From an uncultured bacterium (GTDB lineage: Bacteria > Methylomirabilota > Methylomirabilia > Rokubacteriales > DASRDR01), in NCBI GenBank assembly GCA_964416315.1, contig CAYQDR010000003.1:46031-110030 (forward strand): a stretch of 64,000 nucleotides of DNA. Direction: 5' to 3'. The position numbers were made by a program, and so were the translations under genes. Below the pieces are notes generated by a model, which worked only from the letters and a program-made list of their open reading frames with translations, was not told the DNA's origin and did not search any database. Positions 9,143-61,674 of the stretch are shown here, one piece after another (position 1 is the stretch's first letter; each line of letters begins with the position of its first letter).

Positions 9143-10483
9143 CTACTCCCACATCGCGTCGAAGATGGAGCCGGCGAGCGTCGGGAAGACGTAGTGCATC
9201 GCGGCGAGATCCTGGCGCGTGAGCCCCCCGCGCATGGCGGCCGAAGCGACGTGGATCAGGTCCTCGGCCCCCGGACCGAGAATGTGGGCCCCAAGGAGCC
9301 GCCCGGTCGACGCCTCGGCCACCACCTTGACGAGGCCCTCGGTTTCCTCCCGCACCGCCGCCGCGGTGCTGTCCTCGAAGGGGACCCGGCTTACTGAGAC
9401 CTCGAGCCCCTGCCGCCGCGCCTCGGCCTCCGTGAGCCCGACCTGCCCGATCGCCGGGATCGTGAAGACGGCCGTGGGGAACCACCGGAGGTCCACCGCG
9501 CGCTGGTTGCCTCGGAGCGCGTTCTCCGCGACGAGGCGGCCCTCGTACCAGGCGACGGGGGTGTGCTGGTGCTGGCCCGTGACGTCGCCCGCGGCGTACA
9601 CATGCGCGGCCGTGGGTGACTGGCGGAACTCGTTGACCTTCACCCCGCCCCGCTCCACCGCCACGCCGGCGGCCTCGAGGCCGAGGCCGGCGGTGTTCGG
9701 GGGGCGGCCGGTCGCCACCAGGACGACGTCGCCCGGGAACCGCTCGGCGCGCCCCCCGACCTCCGCCTCGACCGTGCGGTCGGCGCCGATCCGCGTGACG
9801 CGCGCCCCCGTCCGGACCTCGAGCCCGGCGTCCCGGGCGATCGCGAGCAGCGCCTCGCGGATCTCGTCGTCCAGGGCCGGCAGGACGTGCGGCCCCGACT
9901 GGAGCACGGTGACGCGCGTCCCGGCCCGCGCAAAGGCGAAGCCGAGCTCCATCCCGATGTAGCCGCCGCCGACCACCACCATCCGCGCCGGCAGGGTGGC
10001 GTGGTCGAGCAACTCGTCGCTCGTCATGGCGTGCTCGATCCCGGGGATCGGCGGCCGGGCCGGGGAGGAGCCGGTCGCGATGATGACGCGCTCGGCCGTG
10101 ACCCGGCGCCCGGCGACGTCGAGCTCGCGCGGCCCGCGGAACGTCGCGCGGCCGCGGAGAACCGCGATCCCCTGCCGCTCGAAGCCCGTGTCCTTCCCGG
10201 CCGACCACTCCGCCACCAGGCGGTTCTTCCGCGCGATGATGGCACCCCAATCGAGCCCCAGCCCCGCCGTCCCCGTCACGCCCAGCCCGGCCGCGCGGCG
10301 CGCCCGCCAGGCCAGCTCCACGGTGCTGACCAGCACCTTTTTCGGGATTCAGCCGCGCCCGAGGCAGGTTCCCGCGAAGCCGTCCGCCTCCACGAGCGCC
10401 GTCCGGGCGCCGAGCCCGACGGCCGTCCGGGCGGCGAAGCCCCCCGCCGTTCCCGCGCCGATCACCAGGAGATCGTAGTCCAC
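9143..10483 (-). CDS. MerA-like flavoprotein disulfide reductase; in-frame TGA (10351-10349) at the second active-site Cys, candidate selenoprotein
   Basis: MDYDLLVIGAGTAGG FAD-binding fold. Active site GTCLGRG-[TGA]-IPKK where the family has CxxxxC. Blocks IIATGSSPARPPIPGI, LVATGRPPNT and VYAAGD resemble MerA-core blocks as recalled. Strong SD GGAGAGGAGG 5 nt before GTG 10483. The ORF track shows only the post-TGA part, 9143-10336. Confidence 0.7.
10322..10337 (-). ncRNA. SECIS-like stem-loop GGUGCU-GGUC-AGCACC, 11 nt downstream of the UGA at 10351
   Basis: Perfect 6-bp stem with GGUC loop. Spacing and loop match the E. coli fdhF SECIS apical hairpin as I recall it. Confidence 0.55.
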
Positions 10484-10523: not shown

Positions 10524-10706
10524 TCAGCCTCGTCCCTCCACGGGCACGAGGGCCCAGGCGCCGAACTCGTAGGTGACGCGCTGCCGCACTCCGTGGCACT
10601 CGATCAGGTCACCGGGCCGCACGTCGTCCGGCAGATGCACGACGTGCTCCCCCACCGCACAGCTCGCCGTCTTGACCGGGCTGACCGTCCACACGCCGTC
10701 CGTCAC
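10524..10706 (-). CDS. hypothetical 60-aa protein between the redoxin and reductase genes
   Basis: ORF MTDGVWTVSPVKTASCAVGEHVVHLPDDVRPGDLIECHGV... No family recognised. Could be a small beta-barrel protein or non-coding. Confidence 0.3.
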   Translation of the reverse strand: MTDGVWTVSPVKTASCAVGEHVVHLPDDVRPGDLIECHGVRQRVTYEFGAWALVPVEGRG

Positions 10707-10824
10707 GCTCGCCCGGAGCGTGAGCCCGGCTCAGTTGGGTCAGTCGAAGACCCCGCCGTTGGCGATCCCGTCCGGGATCGCGATCTGCTGGCCTCAGCCC
10801 GGGCACCAGGCGGTCGGCATCCGC

Positions 10825-11061
10825 CTACGCGAGCCCGAGCAGCCGCTCGAGCCTGCCCCGGTCGAAGCCCACCACGGCCTCGCCGTCGATGACGGTGACC
10901 GGCGTGGCGCGGTAACCGAGCGCCTGGAGCTCCGCCAGGGCGGCTGGGTCCTGACGGATGTTCCGGTCGGTGAACACGACGCCTTTCTGAGAAAGAAACT
11001 CTTTCTCCGCCTGGCAGGCCCCTCAGCCAGGCTGCGTGTAGACGACGACCGACTTGGCCAT
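10825..11061 (-). CDS. NrdH/glutaredoxin-like redoxin with UxxC motif (TGA at 11025-11023), candidate selenoprotein
   Basis: MAKSVVVYTQPG-[TGA]-GACQAEKEFL..TPVTVIDGE..VGF is the NrdH/Grx fold with the first Cys of CxxC replaced by TGA. SD GGAGGG before ATG 11061. Hairpin GAGAAAG-AGUUU-CUUUCUC at 10989-11007, 15 nt after the UGA. Confidence 0.65.
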
Positions 11062-11227
11062 CACGCCCTCCGTTCGCTCACGCGGCGTTCCCCGCCAGGA
11101 GGCCGCCGAAGATCCGGCGGCCGAGCTTGAACGCTTCGCCCACCGTGGCGCCGGCCCCGGGCACGTCGGGGTGCGCGTCGTGCCAGGCCCGCAGGTGCTC
11201 TTCCGACCGGAAGAAGTTGAGCGTCGT

Positions 11228-11758
11228 TCAGAGCGAGGTGAAAACCTTCCGGTCGATCTCCCCCCGCTTCCCGACCCAGACCATGACCCCGTCGGCACCC
11301 GGACCCGGTCCCTCCGCGTCGGCCTCGAACTCGAGGGGCCCCCCGCAGTGGTGGCAGCGCGAGCGGATCTCCATGCACTGGCCCAGCATCGCCGCCACTC
11401 CGAGCGCGTCGATGGCGCAGCACGCGTACCGGCGCCGGCCGCCCGGGAGCACCACCGCGAACGCCGTCGGCACGGCGGCGAAGGGGTAGGCGAGCTCCAC
11501 CCGCCCCTCGCGGACAAGGATCAGGTCCCGCTCGTCCAGGCCCGCGACCTCCTCCAGCAGGCCATCGCGGGGTCGATCCGGAAACCAGGCCACGATCTCA
11601 TCGATCGGGATCGCTCCCTCCCGCTCGACAAACCGCCGGAGGATGCGCTGGAAGACCGCGTCCAGGCGCTCGGCCCGGCGGGTGGCCCAGCGCGCCTCGA
11701 GCTCCGGATCTACCAGCTCCTCGGCGGTCTTGATCTCCAGCGCCACCCGAGGCCTCAT
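11228..11758 (-). CDS. MerB-family (organomercurial lyase-like) paralogue
   Basis: YACCAIDALG and SRCHHCGG align with the MerB WCAxDTL and CxHxHFF catalytic regions. ATG 11758 directly abuts the merE stop. Confidence 0.6.
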   Translation of the reverse strand: MRPRVALEIKTAEELVDPELEARWATRRAERLDAVFQRILRRFVEREGAIPIDEIVAWFPDRPRDGLLEEVAGLDERDLILVREGRVELAYPFAAVPTAFAVVLPGGRRRYACCAIDALGVAAMLGQCMEIRSRCHHCGGPLEFEADAEGPGPGADGVMVWVGKRGEIDRKVFTSL

Positions 11759-12075
11759 GCGGCTGGACGGGGGGAGCCGCCCACCCCATTGGATTCGGCG
11801 ACCGGGGGCCGCGATTCGCCCGCCGTCCGGGGCGTCCCGCGGTCCGGCTCCCCCCAGGCCCGCAACCCGCGGAGCAGCGAGCCGGCGAAGACGACCGTCA
11901 TGACCGCGAAGGCCGCCGCCGCGTGCTCCCGGAGGACGGCGGCCAGGGCCGTGCCGCCCAACAGGGCGAGCGCCAGCGGAAGGTGGCACGGGCACGTGAC
12001 GGCGGCCACCCCGAGCAGGAGGTACGCCTTCCGTGGCCGCCCCGCCTCCGGTACGCCCCGGGTCATCGCCCGCAT
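11755..12075 (-). CDS. merE: MerE-like mercury transporter
   Basis: LLGVAAVTCPCHLPLALALLGGTALAAV matches the MerE LTCPCHLP transmembrane signature as recalled. Alternative ATG at 12066. Confidence 0.65.
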   Translation of the reverse strand: MRAMTRGVPEAGRPRKAYLLLGVAAVTCPCHLPLALALLGGTALAAVLREHAAAAFAVMTVVFAGSLLRGLRAWGEPDRGTPRTAGESRPPVAESNGVGGSPRPAA

Positions 12076-12082
12076 CGCACGC

Positions 12083-12724
12083 TCACGAACCCGGCAGCCG
12101 CCGCGCTTTGAAGCCCGCCGCTGCGATCGCCTCGACCATGCGCTCGATGGTAACCGAGGCGGGGTCGTACGTCACCCACGCCTTCGCCTGCTCGAAGCTC
12201 ACCTCGGCGTGCTGGATGCCCGGGAGCCCTGCCAGGGCTCGCTCGACCACGGTGGGTCAGGACCCTCAGGTCATCCCGTCCACCTGCAGGATCACGCGCG
12301 CCGCGACGACCGCGCCATGGCCGCCGGACGGACTCGGCCCGGTCCCCGCCTCGTGCTCCATCGCCGCGATTCCGCCCCACGACGCGATGAGCCGTGCCGT
12401 TCGGTCAGGGAACGCCGTCAGGACGACGGCAGCGGCGAGCACAACCGTCGAGATCCCCAGGAGCACTCCGTTGACACGGCCGCCGGCCATGGCGCATCCG
12501 AGCCGCTGGCAGCGCCGCCGTTCCCGCAGGTGGAGGTACCAGCCGAGGCCCGTCCCGAGGACCCCCGCGGGGATGAAGACGTACGTGTACCGCATCGTCA
12601 CCGCCATGAATGCCCCACTCCCCAGGCCGAGCACGACGACCGCGAGGGGGAAGAGGCAGCAGAGCGAGGCAACCGACGCGGACGCCATCGCCACGATGCT
12701 CGACCTCACGTCTGCGAGCTTCAC
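12083..12724 (-). CDS. MerT-like membrane protein fused to a MerP-like HMA domain; metal-binding motif reads GMT-[TGA]-GS-[TGA]
   Basis: TM1 with vicinal CC (ASLCCLFPLAVVVLGLG), loop Cys pair CQRLGC, third TM, then an HMA fold ILQVDGMT-U-GS-U-PTVVERALAGLPGIQHAEVSF..AWVTYDP..IERMVEAIAAAGF. TGA codons at 12268-12266 and 12259-12257. Hairpin GAGCCC-UGGCA-GGGCUC at 12224-12240. Start GTG 12724 overlaps the anti-sigma stop. Confidence 0.6.
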
Positions 12725-13368
12725 GGCCGCACCTGGTCCACCGTCGCGAGGCGTGCGAGCCAGAGGCCGGCGAAGGCCCAGAGCACCGCCCCGAGCCCCA
12801 GCCCCGAGACGAAGGCCACCTGGAGGGTGGGCGCGAACTCGCGGCACTGGATGATCACGTAGGGCGCCAGAATCCCGAGGAACAGCACGCCCGCTTCGAC
12901 CGCCCGGACCGCGGTCCCGTGCCGCAACAGCCACACGCCCAGCGCGACCGGTATCCCGTACGCAGCCCCGGCGACGAGATACGGCAGCGCATCGACGTCG
13001 GACCCCTGGAGCGCCTGCCGACACCAGGCGACCAGGAGGGGATACGGCACGAGCAGCGACAGCACGAGCGAAGCCGCGATCCCGATCAAGGCAGCCTGGG
13101 CGGCTGCGGCCCACCCGCGAAGCGCCAGGACGGACTCCCGGAGGGCGCGGCGGCGTACCTCGCGCAGCACCCGGGTCCTCACCGCGGCCGGGGGCGGCGC
13201 CGCCCCAGGCCAGCGGTCCAGGAGCGCCCAGGTCCCCCGGAGCGCCTCCAGCTCGGCGCGGCAATCCGCGCACGTCTCGAGATGCGACGCCACGTCCCCG
13301 GCCGGGGAGTCCTCCGCACCCCCAAGGCCGACGTCAAGCAGCCGGTCCCTGACCCCATCGCACTCCAT
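12721..13368 (-). CDS. membrane-bound ZAS-type (zinc-binding) anti-sigma factor
   Basis: C3...H29-x3-C33-x2-C36 ZAS motif (MECDG...SHLETCADC) followed by several transmembrane helices. Confidence 0.65.
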   Translation of the reverse strand: MECDGVRDRLLDVGLGGAEDSPAGDVASHLETCADCRAELEALRGTWALLDRWPGAAPPPAAVRTRVLREVRRRALRESVLALRGWAAAAQAALIGIAASLVLSLLVPYPLLVAWCRQALQGSDVDALPYLVAGAAYGIPVALGVWLLRHGTAVRAVEAGVLFLGILAPYVIIQCREFAPTLQVAFVSGLGLGAVLWAFAGLWLARLATVDQVRP

Positions 13369-13411: not shown

Positions 13412-13963
13412 TTACAGCTCGCCGAGCAGATCGCGGAGCCGGCGAAGGGCCCGGTGGAGGGTGACCCGCACCGCGCCCGGGGACGCCCCGATGATCTCCG
13501 CGACCTCCTCGGCGCTCAATCCGCCGAACCGGCAGAGGAGGACGACCTCGCGGTGGGAGGGGGGAAGCTCCAGCATCGCCGCCTGGAATCGCTCGCTGAG
13601 CTCGCCCGCCTCGGCCCGCTCCAGCGGCGTCGCGCTCGGATCGGCCAGCGTCTCGGCGAGCTCGCCGCCCTCCAGCACTCGCGCTCCGCTCCGTCGCCGG
13701 AACTCGTCCACGACCAGGTTTCGGGCGATGGTGAAGAGCCAGGTCCTGAACGCGGCGCTGGGACGCCAGCCCTCGCGGTGTGCGAACACCCGGAGAAACG
13801 TCTCCTGGAGGAGGTCCTCCGCCTTCCGCCGCTCGCCGAGGGACCGGAGCAGGAAGGTGAACACCCTTCGATGGTGCCGGTCGTAGAGCGCCTCGAAGGC
13901 TGTCGGGCTCCCCGCCCGCACCTCGTCCATGAGCACTTCGTCCGAGCGAGTCTCGCGCGGCAT
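13412..13963 (-). CDS. ECF-type RNA polymerase sigma-70 factor
   Basis: Sigma-70 region 2 and region 4 (FLLRSLGERRKAEDLLQETFLRVF ... LSAEEVAEIIGASPGAVRVTLHRALRRL). Start ATG at M17 of the listed ORF. Confidence 0.8.
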   Translation of the reverse strand: MPRETRSDEVLMDEVRAGSPTAFEALYDRHHRRVFTFLLRSLGERRKAEDLLQETFLRVFAHREGWRPSAAFRTWLFTIARNLVVDEFRRRSGARVLEGGELAETLADPSATPLERAEAGELSERFQAAMLELPPSHREVVLLCRFGGLSAEEVAEIIGASPGAVRVTLHRALRRLRDLLGEL

Positions 13964-42251: not shown

Positions 42252-42638
42252 TCAGGATCCAGGCCGCGCCCCCGTCTCGACGGGTGCGGGCGGCTGGGCG
42301 GCGGGGTGCAGGACCCCAATCGCCCAGTCGAGGTCGAGGCGCTCGCCGAGCCAGCTCGGGCACCCCGTCCGCGCGTCGATCGCGAGCCCGCGCGCCCGGT
42401 GGGTCGCAACCAGCGCGTCGGTCGGGTCGCCCGGGACCGCCGGCGCCCGCGGGACTGCGGGAATCGGCCGGCCGTCCGGCGTGGCGAAGCGAAGCGTGCC
42501 GTCGCCGTCGCGCGTGACCTGGTAGCCCTCCTCGTGGACGGCCCGGTGATGGCGCCGGCAGAGCAGGGCGAGGTTCTCGAGCCGGGTCGGCCCGCCGTTC
42601 GCCCAGTGGTGGAGGTGATGCCCCTGGGCGTGGCGCAC
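42252..42638 (-). CDS. HNH endonuclease domain protein, possibly a fragment of a DUF222-type gene
   Basis: HHLHHWANGGPTRLENLALLCRRHHRAVHE HNH motif. Only the C-terminal region of typical DUF222/HNH proteins is present. Confidence 0.45.
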   Translation of the reverse strand: MRHAQGHHLHHWANGGPTRLENLALLCRRHHRAVHEEGYQVTRDGDGTLRFATPDGRPIPAVPRAPAVPGDPTDALVATHRARGLAIDARTGCPSWLGERLDLDWAIGVLHPAAQPPAPVETGARPGS

Positions 42639-42639
42639 G

Positions 42640-44500
42640 GCTTACCGATGATCTCTCGGCGTCAAGCATGCGCAGCGCCAGGATAGCGGACCGTGCCGAA
42701 CAACCGATGCAGCCCGAGCCCCCTCAGCCAGCCGAACGACCACCGGGAGATCGCCGCGTGCCGGTCCCGCAGACCGTGACGCCGGGCCAGAAACAGCCCG
42801 AGCCGTTGCCGCACGTAGTGATCGATCTGGTTGAACTTCAGGGTGGCATTCCCAGCCGCGCGATGACGACCCGCACGTCCTTCACCCCGCTGTGCCGCGC
42901 GTCCGTCAGCTCTCGAATGCGAGCCCCGAAGCCGCTTCATGCTCCTCGGCGACGGCCATCGCTGCAAAAACATCCGGCCGGGATACCGCACCGACCGGCA
43001 CTTCTTCAGCCGACATCCGAGGAACTCGAAGCCCTCCTGCCCGCCCCCGAGCGCCACCAGCCGCGTCTTCTCCGGATGCGCCTCCAATCAGCCCCACCCG
43101 CCTGAGCGCCTCCCGCGCCTGCCCCTCGGTGCGACAGAGCACCACGAGATCGTCGGCGTAGCGAACCAACACGCCGAGCCCCGCGCACCGCTGCTGCCAG
43201 ATCCGATCGAGCCCATGCCGGGAGATGTTCGAGAGCAGCGGCGAGATTACCCCACCCTGCGGCGTCCCCACCACCGTCGCCTCTCGACGCCCTTCCTCCA
43301 GCACCCCGGCCTTCAGCCATCGCCGGATCAGCTTCAGCACCCGCCGGTCCGACACCCGCCGCCCCACTTCCCCCATCAGCCGGTCGTGGTCGATGCGGCC
43401 GAAGTAGTCCTGAATGTCGACCTCTACCACATGATCGTGCCCCTGGTTCGCTGTGACCCGAATGGTCTCCAGCGCCTCCGTGGCGCTTCGCTTCGGCCGG
43501 AACCCGTAGGACACCGGCAGAAAATCGGCCTCGAAGAGCGGCTCGATCACCAGCTTGGTCGCCATCTGCACGACCCGGTCCCGGACTGTCGGAATGCCCA
43601 ACGGCCGTCGCCGTCCATCCGCCTTCGGGATGTACCGCCGCTCCACCGGTGCCGGTCGGTACCGCCCAGCCTTGAGGTCGGCCTGGATCTCGTGAAGAAA
43701 CCCCTCGACCCCCCGCTGCTCAATGGCCGCGATCGTCTCGCCGTCCACCCCCGCAGCGCCCCGATTCGCTCGCACCCCGCGCCACGCTTCCCACAGGACG
43801 TCACTCCTGTAGATCCGGTCGTACAGCGCGTGGAACCGCCGCCCCCGACTCCGCTTGGCCGCACGCCACAGCGCCCGCTGGAGTTCTCGCACTTTGCCGT
43901 CCGGGTCGTTGGAGCTTGCGCTCATGCCCTCGCGCTTACCCCCAGGCGGACGCATGACCAAAGCAGGGGCCCTTCCCTCCAGGCGATTGTCTCGCCCTTC
44001 CCCGGTACTCCGACCCCCTCGGACGCCCTCCCGACGCCCCGCCGTTTCGGACTCGCCTTATCGACGTGGCCGTGCTCTGACTTGAGCCGTCGGGGAGGGC
44101 CTCTCCAGTTCCGCACCGGGCCATGGACACGTGCCGCTCCCCGTACCCCGGAGGGGTCCAGCGCCGCGCCGATCCTTACGCGCTGTCTGTGGCCTTCGCC
44201 GTGACATGCCCGGCTCGGCCCCCTCTGCCTTTCGGCTGATAATCTGACGAGGCGGCAGGATTCACGTGATGTTGCGGCCCGCGCCCTCGCTCCCTCCGTA
44301 GAGGCTCTTGACGCCCTGCTCAGCGTCGAGGCTCTCACCTCGCCGCCAGGGCCTGCTACTGAGCGCATCGGCGCTTACTCAGGCGGGACTTCCACCCGCA
44401 GGTCCGGTGCAGCTTGGCTGGACGCAGCACGGGAACAGCATACCACTCGCTCCCCTGGACTGGACCCCAAGGGCGCCGTCCGTGGGTGATCCAGGATCCG
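42640..44500 (-). mobile_element. group II intron (boundaries approximate) with degenerate intron-encoded protein
   Basis: Intron-encoded protein has RT motifs [30 protein letters not shown] and YADDLVV. The maturase/X domain [11 protein letters not shown]...NQIDHYVRQRL continues in a different frame. About 550 nt of non-coding 5' sequence fits domains I-III. Confidence 0.55.
42662..43925 (-). pseudogene. group II intron RT/maturase with frameshift between RT and X domains
   Basis: RT domain in frame of ORF 42906-43961 (start ATG 43925). X domain in frame of ORF 42662-43087. Confidence 0.55.
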
Positions 44501-59176: not shown

Positions 59177-59570
59177 TCCCATCCTGGCCGCCCTGCTCGG
59201 CGGCCAGGCCCGGCGGGTCTTCTTCGAGGCCGGGGTCCAGGAGTTCGCAGTCCCCGAACCCGTGATCGACGAAGTCAGCCGGTATGTGCCAAGTCTGGCC
59301 CGCAAGCTTGGCGTGGACGTCGCGCTCGTACAGTACGCGCTCGAACTCCTCCCCCTGCGCCGCTATCCTGCGGGTGCATACGCTCGCGCGCTCGGGGAGG
59401 CCAGGCGGCGCCTCGCGGGGCGGGACCCCGACGACGTCGCCCCGCTTGCGCTTGCCCTACAGCTCGGGATCCCCCTGTGGTCGAACGATCGGGACTTCGA
59501 GGGCACCCGCATCGAGTGGTTCACCAGCGCGCAACTCCTGGCGCTCTTCTTCCCGCCCTCCACGCGCTGA
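59133..59570 (+). CDS. PIN-domain toxin (VapC-like)
   Basis: LVVDANPILAAL ... LWSNDRDF PIN motifs. TTG/internal start uncertain. Confidence 0.6.
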   Translation: MPTSRKPERLVVDANPILAALLGGQARRVFFEAGVQEFAVPEPVIDEVSRYVPSLARKLGVDVALVQYALELLPLRRYPAGAYARALGEARRRLAGRDPDDVAPLALALQLGIPLWSNDRDFEGTRIEWFTSAQLLALFFPPSTR

Positions 59571-61674
59571 ACAGCGGTTCTCCAGCGCGCCGTCCACGCT
59601 GCGCTCGGGATCCGGAAGGCCCTGGAGAGCTATCAGGAGGAGCTCCGGCGCGAGAGCGGGGTGAGCTTCCAGGCGCGTCAGGGGCTCAATACGGGTCTCG
59701 TCGTGGTGGGGAGCATCGGGAGCGACCTCCGGATGGACTACACGGCGGTCGGCGACACGACCAACGTGGCCGCGCGTCTCCAGCAGGCGGCCGGCCCGGG
59801 ACGGATCGTCATCGCCGAGGCGACGCGCCGGCTGGTCGAGGGCTATTTCTACACCCGGCCCCTCGGGCCGATCCCCCTCAAGGGCAAGGCCGACCCGGTC
59901 CGGGCATGGGAGGTGGTCTCAGCCCGCGTGGCCCGGACACGGCTGGAAGTGGAGGCCGAGCGAGGGCTGACCCCCTTCGTGGGCCGCGAGCGCGAGCTCC
60001 GGCTCCTCGAGGAGTGCTTCGAGAAGGCCCACGCGGGCCACGGGCAAGTCGTCTTCCTGGTCGGCGAGGCGGGAATCGGTAAGTCGCGGCTCCTCTTCGA
60101 GCTCCACCGCCGCCTCGGCGACCGCGCGACCTGGGTCGAAGGTCACTCGATCTCCTTCGGGCAGTCGATCGCGTTCCACCCGCTGACCGACCTCCTCAGG
60201 CGGACCTTCAGGATCGAGGAAGGGGACACCGACGCGGGCATCGGCGAGAAGATCGACCGGAACGTGCTGCTCCTGGGCGAGGACCTTCGGCCGATCCTCC
60301 CGTTTCTCCGCTTCCTCCTGTCCGTGGACCCGGGTGATGCTGGCGTGAGCAAGATGGACCCGAAGGAGCGCAGGCAGGGGATCTTCGACGCCGTCCGGCG
60401 CCTCACGCTCCGCGCGTGCGAGGTGCGGACGCCGGTCGTGGTCTTCGAAGACGGCCACTGGATGGACAAGGCAACGGAGGAATACCTCGTCTTCGTCGGT
60501 GACAGCGTCGCGGCCAGCCGGCTCCTGGTCGTCCTCACCTACCGGCCGGGCTACACCCATCCTTTCGGCGAGCGCACATATCACACGCGGATCGCGCTGG
60601 ACAGCCTGCCCGCGGAGGCCAGCATCGCCATGGCACAGGCGATGCTGGCGACCGAGGGCCTCCCCGAAGAGCTCAAGTCCCTGATCGCTCGCAAGGCCGA
60701 AGGCAATCCCTTCTTCGTCGAGGAAGTGGTCAGGTCCCTCCAGGAGGTCGGCGCCATCCGACGGGTCGGCGACCGATATGTCTTGGCGAAGCGCCCGGAG
60801 GAGCTCGTCGTCCCGGACACGATCCAGGATCTGATCATGACCCGGATCGACCGCCTTGCGGAGGCCCCGAAAAAGACCCTGCAATTCGCCTCGGTCATCG
60901 GCCGGGAGTTCACGCGGCGGCTGCTCGACCGGATCGCGGAGATCCGGGAGCGCACGGACGAGGTCCTGCGGGAGCTGAAGGCGATCGAGCTGATTTACGA
61001 GCGACGGCTCTTCCCCGAGCTCGCGTATATGTTCAGGTGCAGCTCCTTGCGCCGCCCGACGAGCAGGGAGTTGTAGGCCACCTCGTGGGTCAGCGCGTGC
61101 TTCCTCGTCGGGGTCGCGATCGAGGAACTCTACGCGGACCGGCTGCCCGAGCAGTATGAGGGCCTCCCCCATCACTTCTCGAAGGCGGGAGAGTGGGCCA
61201 AGGCAGTCGCGACTACCTGTTCCGGCGACGTGTCGCGGGCCAATGAGGCATGCGAGGCAGTGAAGCGGATCCAGCGTCACACCTTCCTGGGCTGCAGCTT
61301 CGAGGACGCCGCCGCCGTCGGGTTCCACTACTTGCGGCAGGGTGCATGGGACGGCGCCAGAGAATATCTCGAGGGGACCCTACAGGTCCATCGTGAGCGC
61401 AACAACATCGGTGCCGTGGGCGCCTGCTGCTTCTCCCTGGGTGCACTCCACATGGAGCGAGACGGCGCTCGCCATCAACAAGCGGTACGGACTGCCCTGG
61501 GACGAGGCGAAGGTCCTCTCCGAGTGGGGCCGCATGCACCTGGCCCGGGGTAGGGCGCGCGACCGTCAGAACGGCCGGGAGAAGCTCGGCGTAGCGCTCG
61601 CGACCTTCGAGCGGATCGGCGCCCGGACAGACGCCGAGAAGGTTCGAGCCGAGATCGCAGGGCTAGGAGCCTGA
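59571..61674 (+). pseudogene. 5'-truncated, 3'-degraded paralogue of the cyclase/AAA/TPR gene at 51150-54752
   Basis: Reading frame opens directly after the vapC stop, in the middle of a cyclase domain (AVHAALGIRKALESYQ..GLNTGLVVVGSIGSDLRMDYTAVGDTTNVAARL). Intact AAA part to 61076. TPR remnants in two other frames (61230-61553, 61342-61674). Confidence 0.6.

Follow-up and report, generated by a model that had tools for sequence, protein, structure and literature searches.

The minimal selenocysteine (Sec) insertion sequence (SECIS) of Escherichia coli fdhF, a molybdopterin formate dehydrogenase gene, consists of a short hairpin with a GGUC apical loop that begins 11 nt after the UGA codon, and it is the G/U of such SECIS loops that SelB recognizes. 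In this work, we analyzed a hairpin of nearly the same design, which lies behind an in-frame UGA codon in a MerA-like class I pyridine nucleotide-disulfide oxidoreductase gene of a mer-like operon. The gene is located on a stretch of 64,000 nt (contig CAYQDR010000003.1 of assembly GCA_964416315.1, positions 46,031 to 110,030 of the forward strand; referred to below as the window) from a relative of Candidatus Rokubacteria (Methylomirabilota). We conclude that the hairpin is very probably a bacterial SECIS that directs Sec to the UGA of this MerA-like flavoenzyme, a reading supported by its co-occurrence with the TGA, by the Cys position of the UGA, by selection at synonymous sites, and by parallel hairpins elsewhere in the operon. 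The SECIS mechanism is already textbook knowledge; the newer part is the host protein family.

In mammalian thioredoxin reductase, Sec lies in a C-terminal GCUG motif, that is, in the C-terminal tail of the enzyme. A second flavoprotein with Sec, the CoA-disulfide reductase/NADH-oxidase-type selenoprotein of TIGR03385, belongs to the COG0446 subfamily, has a single redox residue, and carries a "UGxP" motif (PMC13188914; deep-Sep supplement). The MerA-like enzyme shares with both of them the FAD-dependent pyridine nucleotide-disulfide oxidoreductase superfamily and, if its UGA is read as Sec, the use of Sec in redox catalysis, yet its Sec would be placed differently, within the N-terminal CxxxxC pair beside the flavin. 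Class I (Lpd/MerA/GR-type) flavoproteins with Sec in CxxxxC are not in the prokaryotic selenoprotein family table of PMC13188914 and are absent from the deep-Sep reference set, in which the "putative mercuric reductase" is a small HMA protein only and the FAD oxidoreductases are of the COG0446 and COG1252 types; likewise, no selenoprotein model of NCBIfam 20.0 captures the MerA-like protein. The host family thus appears to be uncatalogued in the selenoprotein catalogues checked, although coverage of the literature was incomplete and an earlier description is possible. If the Sec reading is true, this would be the first class I flavoprotein disulfide reductase with Sec inside the CxxxxC pair, present in Rokubacteria and Binatia, and selenium directly against the flavin would be a new chemical variant of a well-studied enzyme class.

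Results

The MerA-like gene (9143..10483, minus strand) has 446 codons including the UGA and begins with GTG, 5 nt after a GGAGG ribosome-binding site, and ends with a TAG stop. Its first 44 codons encode the FAD-binding GxGxxG motif and the first redox Cys, and codon 45 is the in-frame UGA (10349..10351, minus strand), a candidate Sec codon in the context GTC-LGRG-[U]-IPKK. The UGA aligns with the second Cys of "GTCVNIGCVPSK" in the solved mercuric reductase 5x1y and, more generally, with the second Cys of the redox-active CxxxxC in solved structures of MerA, glutathione reductase (GR), and dihydrolipoamide dehydrogenase (DLD) as well as in the family models. In this enzyme class, the second Cys of CxxxxC is the flavin-proximal, charge-transfer Cys; here, the redox pair is C40-LGRG-U45, adjacent to FAD, with U at the second Cys position.

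When read through, the protein scores 211 bits on Pyr_redox_2 and 104 bits on Pyr_redox_dim. Among solved structures, it matches mercuric reductase 5x1y best (276 bits, E = 6e-81); among NCBIfam models, TIGR02053 (MerA) ranks first, at 352.8 bits and below the cutoff of 454.45, with the lipoamide dehydrogenase and glutathione reductase models scoring just behind. In common with MerA, it has the class I fold, the CxxxxC-type redox pair, the absence of the His of the GR/DLD "HPT" motif (FPTL here), and an operon with MerT-HMA, MerE, and MerB homologues. Unlike MerA, it has no N-terminal HMA (NmerA) domain, Sec would replace its flavin-proximal Cys, and the C-terminal vicinal Cys pair, which in MerA hands Hg(II) to the active site, is missing: the protein ends in ...FPTLAGSIFDAMWE, with no Cys, and its alignment with 5x1y stops ~30 residues short of the 5x1y C-terminus. 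Because it lacks both the C-terminal Cys pair and NmerA, we call the enzyme MerA-like; by the features that define the MerA family, it is not a MerA.

On the minus strand, the candidate UGA (10351-10349) is separated from the base of the hairpin by a spacer of 11 nt, ATCCCGAAAAA (10348-10338). This spacer (AUCCCGAAAAA; 10338..10348, minus strand) covers codons I46, P47, and K48 and the first two bases of K49. The hairpin itself, GGUGCU-GGUC-AGCACC (10322-10337, minus strand), has a perfect Watson-Crick stem of 6 bp, made up of the 5' arm GGTGCT (10337-10332), the loop GGTC (10331-10328), and the 3' arm AGCACC (10327-10322), all on the minus strand. The geometry given in the earlier note on this DNA, namely, UGA, an 11-nt spacer, a perfect 6-bp stem, and a GGUC loop, is therefore exact when read on the minus strand. 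The free energy is -7.8 kcal/mol for the 16-mer (GGUGCUGGUCAGCACC), which is nearly invariant among relatives, and -8.0 kcal/mol for the 30-mer; on its own, the element folds at -8.0 kcal/mol with a z score of -2.07, and 8 of 200 shuffled sequences fold equally well. The palindrome GGTGCTNNNNAGCACC has one exact copy in the window, where 0.09 copies with at most one mismatch are expected.

Scans of genomes and metagenomes together with contig look-ups yielded 19 distinct TGA-type orthologous sequences, including that of the window. These form two branches, one of Candidatus Rokubacteria-type contigs, including the locus L042 (GCA_016188565.1; 92% identical, syntenic), and one of contigs labeled Candidatus Binatia or Deltaproteobacteria, down to ~57% protein identity. 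All 19, from two phyla, have the TGA followed by 11 nt and GGTGCT-NNNN-AGCACC; the spacer is invariant in length, and its synonymous sites are free (ATC/ATA/ATT, CCG/CCC/CCT, AAA/AAG). In a de novo prediction by RNAalifold, no consistent structure other than this hairpin appears after the UGA. The earlier note had made its proposal depend on conservation of the hairpin in related sequences, and the stem is indeed identical in 19 of 19 TGA-type orthologues. Within the loop, 18 of 19 sequences have G at position 1, and position 4 can be C, U, A, or G; this pattern, with G-G-U kept at positions 1 to 3 and position 4 free, fits a putative recognition of the loop G/U by SelB.

A test of synonymous sites over the first 122 codons shows how unusual this conservation is. 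Among the 33 degenerate codons whose amino acid is invariant, all 29 outside the hairpin vary (mean minor-codon count, 7.6 of 19), and the sole four that do not, K49 (AAG), V50 (GTG), S53 (AGC), and T54 (ACC), are precisely those that contribute a wobble base to the stem pairs (hypergeometric P = 2.4e-5). K48, which adjoins the stem, is AAA in 8 sequences and AAG in 11, whereas K49 is AAG in 19 of 19. In this comparison of aligned sequences, purifying selection at the nucleotide level is shown for the stem and for loop position 1. The one close Cys-type orthologue, L018, carries TGT in place of the TGA in a single open reading frame (ORF) and encodes the peptide VPKKILVST by the sequence AAGATTCTTGTTAGCACT, in which the hairpin does not form.

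Two loci, L036 and L041, were left out of this comparison as indel-ridden or unrelated. L036 (4001-4260) has three reading frames in 260 nt and TGG for TGA, with GGTGCTGGTCAGCACC kept, which points to a pseudogene in decay or to an error-prone assembly. A distant relative with 36% identity, L023 (1700-3058), comes from a lower-GC metagenome and has its TGA at the first Cys of the pair (GT-U-PNYGC), with an 8-bp hairpin, GCCAGCAA-GGCA-UUGCUGGC, 25 nt downstream; it looks like a second, independent Sec form of a class I flavoprotein disulfide reductase.

The model of bacterial SECIS elements (bSECIS) calls for an apical loop of 3 to 9 nt on an upper stem of 4 to 16 bp, a G at loop position 1, 2, or both that in most cases precedes a G or U, a distance of 16 to 37 nt from UGA to loop, and a free energy of -7.5 kcal/mol or below (PMC13188914). 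Here, the loop has 4 nt and the stem 6 bp; the loop reads GGUC and, among the orthologues, GGUN in 18 of 19 and CGUG in 1 of 19; the distance from UGA to loop is 17 nt, invariant in the 19 sequences; and the energy of -7.8 to -8.0 kcal/mol lies narrowly below the limit. In terms of the same model, the UGA occupies the Cys of MerA/GR/DLD, with TGT in L018, and the hairpin accompanies the TGA in 19 of 19 orthologues, whereas L018, the only close Cys-type orthologue available, lacks it.

For the comparison with fdhF, we took as reference the TGA followed by CACGGCCCATC (11 nt) and GGTTGCAGGTCTGCACC, a string that matches annotated fdhF in 5,413 E. coli records at an identity of at least 99% and is 100% identical among the E. 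coli records listed. The two elements have in common the distance of 11 nt after the UGA, the short hairpin, and the GGUC apical loop, and their arms are near-identical (GGU-GCU/AGC-ACC here, GGU(U)GCA/UGC-ACC in fdhF). They differ in the pair that closes the loop, U-A here and A-U in fdhF, and in the host, here a flavoprotein disulfide reductase of Rokubacteria/Binatia. The fdhF likeness that the earlier note had pointed out thus holds for spacing and loop against the E. coli records, and it breaks down at the bulged U of fdhF, which is missing here. As an RNA element, the hairpin would be an ordinary bacterial SECIS, unusually close to the fdhF minimal element.

The window has a GC content of 72%, and the chance level of such hairpins was taken from its 1,123 other TGA trinucleotides and from arbitrary positions, with a filter for a perfect stem of at least 6 bp, a loop of 3 to 5 nt with G at position 1 or 2, a distance of 16 to 37 nt from the UGA, and an energy of at most -7. 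This filter is passed by 7.1% of the other TGAs and by 8.2% of the arbitrary positions. Among 128,000 positions, 31 have a GGNC tetraloop on a stem of 6 bp or more, which amounts to ~0.5% per 22-nt placement window. The bSECIS model is correspondingly permissive, as 7 to 8% of random window sites pass a comparable filter. On its own, the hairpin is suggestive, and its significance arises from the comparative data. The 80 other sites in the window that combine a TGA with a hairpin were checked, and none is a further selenoprotein candidate; eight of them with high GC at third codon positions (GC3) on both sides were rejected because they lie in Arg-rich noncoding frames with high GC at second codon positions. 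Genome-wide reassignment of TGA (codes 4 or 25) was rejected too: 29 of 42 ORFs stop at TGA, as do genes of the operon. TGA is therefore an ordinary stop here, and any recoding is local and context dependent, with no change of the genetic code.

The MerA-like gene belongs to an operon that runs from ~13930 to 9143 on the minus strand in the order sigma factor, anti-sigma factor, MerT-HMA, MerE, MerB, glutaredoxin (Grx), zinc ribbon (ZnR), and MerA-like gene, with gene coordinates anchored on peptides. The operon contains eight in-frame UGAs, 8 of 8 at Cys positions, which make up six independent sites, each followed by a perfect hairpin of 6 to 8 bp with a loop G at position 1 or 2. The six loops are GGUC, GGUC, GGAC, GUU, GGC, and CGGGC and lie 15 to 32 nt from their UGAs. 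After the five UGAs that terminate genes of the operon, no comparable hairpin was found. At the background rate, hairpins at six of six sites would have a joint probability of ~3e-7. The five other hairpins of the operon also conform to the generic bSECIS model (bSECISearch consensus), with two departures: ZnR-U3 lies 15 nt from its loop, just below the range of 16 to 37 nt, and two hairpins each serve two UGAs that are 9 nt apart.

One of these two belongs to the MerT-HMA fusion (12083..12724, minus strand), in which the motif GMT-U-GS-U holds UGAs at 12268-12266 and 12259-12257, 9 nt apart, that share the hairpin GAGCCCU-GGC-AGGGCUC (12240-12224, minus strand) at distances of 23 and 32 nt from its loop. 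With two UGAs on one hairpin, the spacing rules here would be looser than the strict 11 nt of fdhF. Against NF041115, "UxxU metal-binding (seleno)protein," the HMA part reaches 92 bits (cutoff, 95), and both TGAs and the hairpin are kept in the related locus L001, with one change from A-U to G-U. The MerB-like gene (11078..11758, minus strand; alkylmercury lyase family, PF03243, 96 bits) has its UGA at 11230-11228, in SL-U-TTLNFF, followed by the hairpin UUCUUCC-GGUC-GGAAGAG (11215-11198, minus strand), and TGA and hairpin are identical in L001. We take this UGA to stand at the position of the catalytic Cys159 of MerB; SaoL, a known MerB-like selenoprotein, differs in having a "CU" motif. Between these two genes lies a MerE-like membrane protein gene (11755..12075, minus strand; CPCH motif, PF05052, NF010310) with no UGA.

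The glutaredoxin-like gene (10825..11061, minus strand) has its UGA at 11025-11023, in PG-U-GAC, and the hairpin GAGAAAGA-GUU-UCUUUCUC (11007-10989, minus strand), which is retained in L019 at 51% amino acid identity with a compensatory change from A-U to C-G at pair 7. In the zinc-ribbon gene (10524..10820, minus strand; CPG-U ... U-PN-U), TGA encodes three of the four Cys ligands, with UGAs at 10796-10794, 10742-10740, and 10733-10731. Hairpin 1, GCGAUCCC-GGAC-GGGAUCGC, lies at 10781-10762 and hairpin 2, UCACGCUC-CGGGC-GAGCGUGA, which serves U2 and U3, at 10723-10703, both on the minus strand. L001 has the same operon with its TGAs kept, except that ZnR-U2 is Cys, and L019 (1022-1297) and L010 (196-471) have an all-Cys zinc ribbon (CPDC...CPHC), so that Cys/TGA pairs exist among orthologues at all three ZnR positions. 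The ZnR-U1 hairpin is not present in the all-Cys orthologue genes.

At the head of the operon are an ECF sigma factor gene (13412-13930, minus strand) and an anti-sigma factor gene with an HxxxCxxC motif (12721-13368, minus strand), both with no in-frame UGA. The ECF sigma/anti-sigma pair also precedes the operon in L010 and L042, and a sigma/zf-HC2 anti-sigma pair adjoins the orthologue in L046 (5944-7346). HxxxCxxC is the motif of ZAS-type thiol/zinc switches, and the operon head has no MerR regulator. Start-stop overlaps, GTGA between the anti-sigma and MerT-HMA genes (12721-12724) and ATGA at 11755-11758, suggest translational coupling.

The analysis also exposes a systematic annotation error. 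A GTG at 10336 (minus strand), inside the 5' arm of the hairpin and without a ribosome-binding site, is the publicly annotated start, and all 240 of the closest public proteins listed start at this hairpin-internal GTG; they have 380 to 401 residues, cover 85 to 90% of the query, and are named NAD(P)/FAD-dependent oxidoreductase, dihydrolipoamide dehydrogenase, or glutathione reductase. These 240 entries are truncated at the UGA and unrecognized as selenoproteins. Neighboring genes of the operon are fragmented in the same way: in L042, the entire operon is annotated as TGA-broken fragments (HMA, 55 amino acids; MerB, 172 amino acids).

Discussion

If the hairpin is a SECIS, as we consider highly probable, SelB tethered to it would compete with release factor 2 for the UGA in the A site and bring in Sec-tRNA, and the product would be a full-length flavoenzyme of 446 residues with Sec as the flavin-proximal partner of Cys40. 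We infer SelB binding, Sec as the residue inserted, and the presence of selA, selB, selC, and selD in the organism. The earlier note had taken the hairpin as the strongest single piece of evidence that the TGAs of this operon are decoded as Sec. In our analysis, the Cys alignment, the conservation, and the operon-wide pattern outweigh the hairpin, of which comparable forms have a background of 7 to 8%; these three lines of evidence support the decoding itself, which, as no sel genes were found in the sequence available, stays at the level of what we infer.

Several results weigh against this reading. A comparable hairpin stands at 7 to 8% of window sites, so that a single hairpin is weak evidence, and the comparison with bacterial SECIS covariance models that the earlier note had proposed gave no match in Rfam, either for the window at the gathering threshold or for 10200-10450 at E ≤ 10. 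The stem is perfect, whereas that of fdhF has a bulged U in its 5' arm, a feature that matters to E. coli SelB. The orthologue alignment was also examined for a conserved lower stem that would take in the UGA region, and none emerged. Covariation was sought with the divergent second branch included, and all six pairs are invariant in the 19 sequences, so that, for this hairpin, conservation of structure and conservation of primary sequence cannot be told apart. With 52 nt of the window sequence as context, ViennaRNA favors an alternative pairing with nonconserved downstream bases; minimum free energy structures in longer contexts are ambiguous and were not relied on, given that the genuine fdhF 31-mer also misses its canonical fold. 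In the operon, the ZnR-U2/U3 hairpin persists, with compensatory changes, in all-Cys orthologues and is thus not perfectly TGA specific; it may predate or outlive the Sec codons. Lastly, ARAGORN found no tRNA, and hence no tRNA-Sec, in the 64-kb window or in ten related loci, and no selA, selB, or selD was seen in the window, where the search for Sec machinery used Pfam on the ten largest other ORFs, or in the related loci examined.

An alternative reading is a chance palindrome, or a by-product of the KVLVST peptide and GC-biased codons, in a pseudogene or a gene with nonspecific read-through. In a GC-rich window, 7 to 8% of sites are expected to carry one such hairpin, the stem shows no covariation, and the encoded peptide is conserved. 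However, peptide and codon bias do not account for stem codons that are invariant at their synonymous sites where all 29 comparable codons elsewhere vary, and the Cys-type orthologue has almost the same peptide without the hairpin. Neither is the gene likely to be decaying, since the TGA and the intact frame are kept across two phyla and hundreds of database clusters, whereas the clearly decayed copy L036 looks different, with indels and TGG for TGA. Of the explanations considered, we give this one the least credence. A genuinely split gene is what gene callers annotate in 240 of 240 close relatives listed: a 44-codon ORF would end at the TGA, the enzyme would begin at the hairpin GTG, and the hairpin would regulate reinitiation or translation, which, with the GTG in its 5' arm, melting of the hairpin could in principle gate. 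Such an enzyme, with 397 residues, would lose the GxGxxG FAD-binding element and the first redox Cys, although homology to MerA/GR/DLD continues in frame and unbroken across a TGA that falls exactly on the catalytic Cys. Moreover, a ribosome-binding site precedes the upstream GTG and none precedes the internal one, the combination of TGA-at-Cys and hairpin is found again at five further sites, none of which involves a start codon, and the Cys-type L018 is one ORF. We therefore find a split gene very hard to credit.

The hairpins might also serve a different amino acid. In this case, a SelB paralogue and a tRNA(Sec)-like Cys-tRNA(UCA) would be recruited by the hairpin, and the UGAs would be recoded as Cys, not Sec, as in the selC* tRNA(Cys)/SelB*/CysRS* system proposed for some Deltaproteobacteria, for which there is bioinformatic evidence and, in part, evidence from E. 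coli assays (PMC5389517). This would agree with the 8 of 8 UGAs at Cys positions and with the existence of Cys-type orthologues, and sequence by itself cannot separate Sec from Cys insertion. On the other hand, selC*/selB* have been reported in Syntrophobacterales, Desulfobacterales, Thermodesulfobacteria, and Thermodesulfovibrio, not in Rokubacteria, and always beside a complete Sec system (PMC5389517). No such tRNA or selB copy was found in the window, recoding to Cys would bring no evident gain over a plain TGC codon, and the HMA domain and Grx of the operon match families curated as selenoproteins. We thus regard Cys insertion as improbable and Sec as the residue to be expected at these UGAs.

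Sec decoding in this lineage gains indirect support from three sides. A Methylomirabilota metagenome-assembled genome has 63 predicted selenoprotein genes (PMC13188914), the HMA part of MerT-HMA is a near match to NF041115, and a neighbor of the MerA-like orthologue in two loci from Binatia-type contigs has the motif WTYG-U-INC. This neighbor (L043, 6908-7435; L044, 1470-1997) is a TlpA/thioredoxin-fold gene directly downstream of the orthologue, followed by a CCCGC-AGUU-GCGGG hairpin; in L043, it is called as two abutting pieces (66 and 108 amino acids) but is really one gene. A literature search for Rokubacteria or Methylomirabilis with selenocysteine returned nothing relevant.

Extended to the whole operon, the Sec reading would comprise six SECIS elements and eight UGAs, through which metal-ligand and catalytic Cys residues would be replaced by Sec. 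The sites would be the UxxU of MerT-HMA, the Cys159 equivalent of MerB, the UxxC of Grx, three of the four ZnR ligands, and the flavin-proximal Cys of the MerA-like enzyme; together, under the control of the ECF sigma factor and its ZAS-type anti-sigma factor, they might form a selenolate-based heavy-metal/organomercurial pathway whose reductase would represent an uncatalogued, widespread selenoprotein family. For this broader proposal, we see the chances as evenly balanced. The hairpin anchors the reading of the operon as rich in Sec at metal-binding positions. As Hg has a very high affinity for selenolates, selenium-mercury antagonism would be directly testable in a bacterial system.

The candidate substrates of the MerA-like enzyme are Hg(II) and a disulfide or selenenylsulfide of a partner protein. 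In the Binatia-type contigs, the enzyme and the same SECIS occur outside mer operons, with GMC oxidoreductase, glyoxalase, glycoside hydrolase, MFS, and peroxiredoxin-type genes as neighbors. Because of this, the enzyme may be a general reductase of disulfides or selenenylsulfides, which the mer-like operon of Rokubacteria recruited. The near-invariant 16-mer is a handy probe for such genes and, if it is a SECIS, a defined SelB-binding substrate from two uncultured phyla.

Two further observations concern other parts of the window. A TGA at 59568-59570 (plus strand) lies upstream of ORF 59661-61076 (plus strand; AAA_16/adenylate cyclase), and the in-frame sequence after this TGA, ahead of the ORF, has high GC3. 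No SECIS-type hairpin was found near this TGA. The match of the ORF to the cyclase domain does not begin until model position 100, and the start of the gene may be misplaced or the gene disrupted. At 44267-44401 (minus strand), there is a match to the group II intron domain RF02003 (90.5 bits, E = 1e-18) and, nearby, an ORF with an HNH motif (42252-42638, minus strand), which mark a mobile element unrelated to the hairpin.

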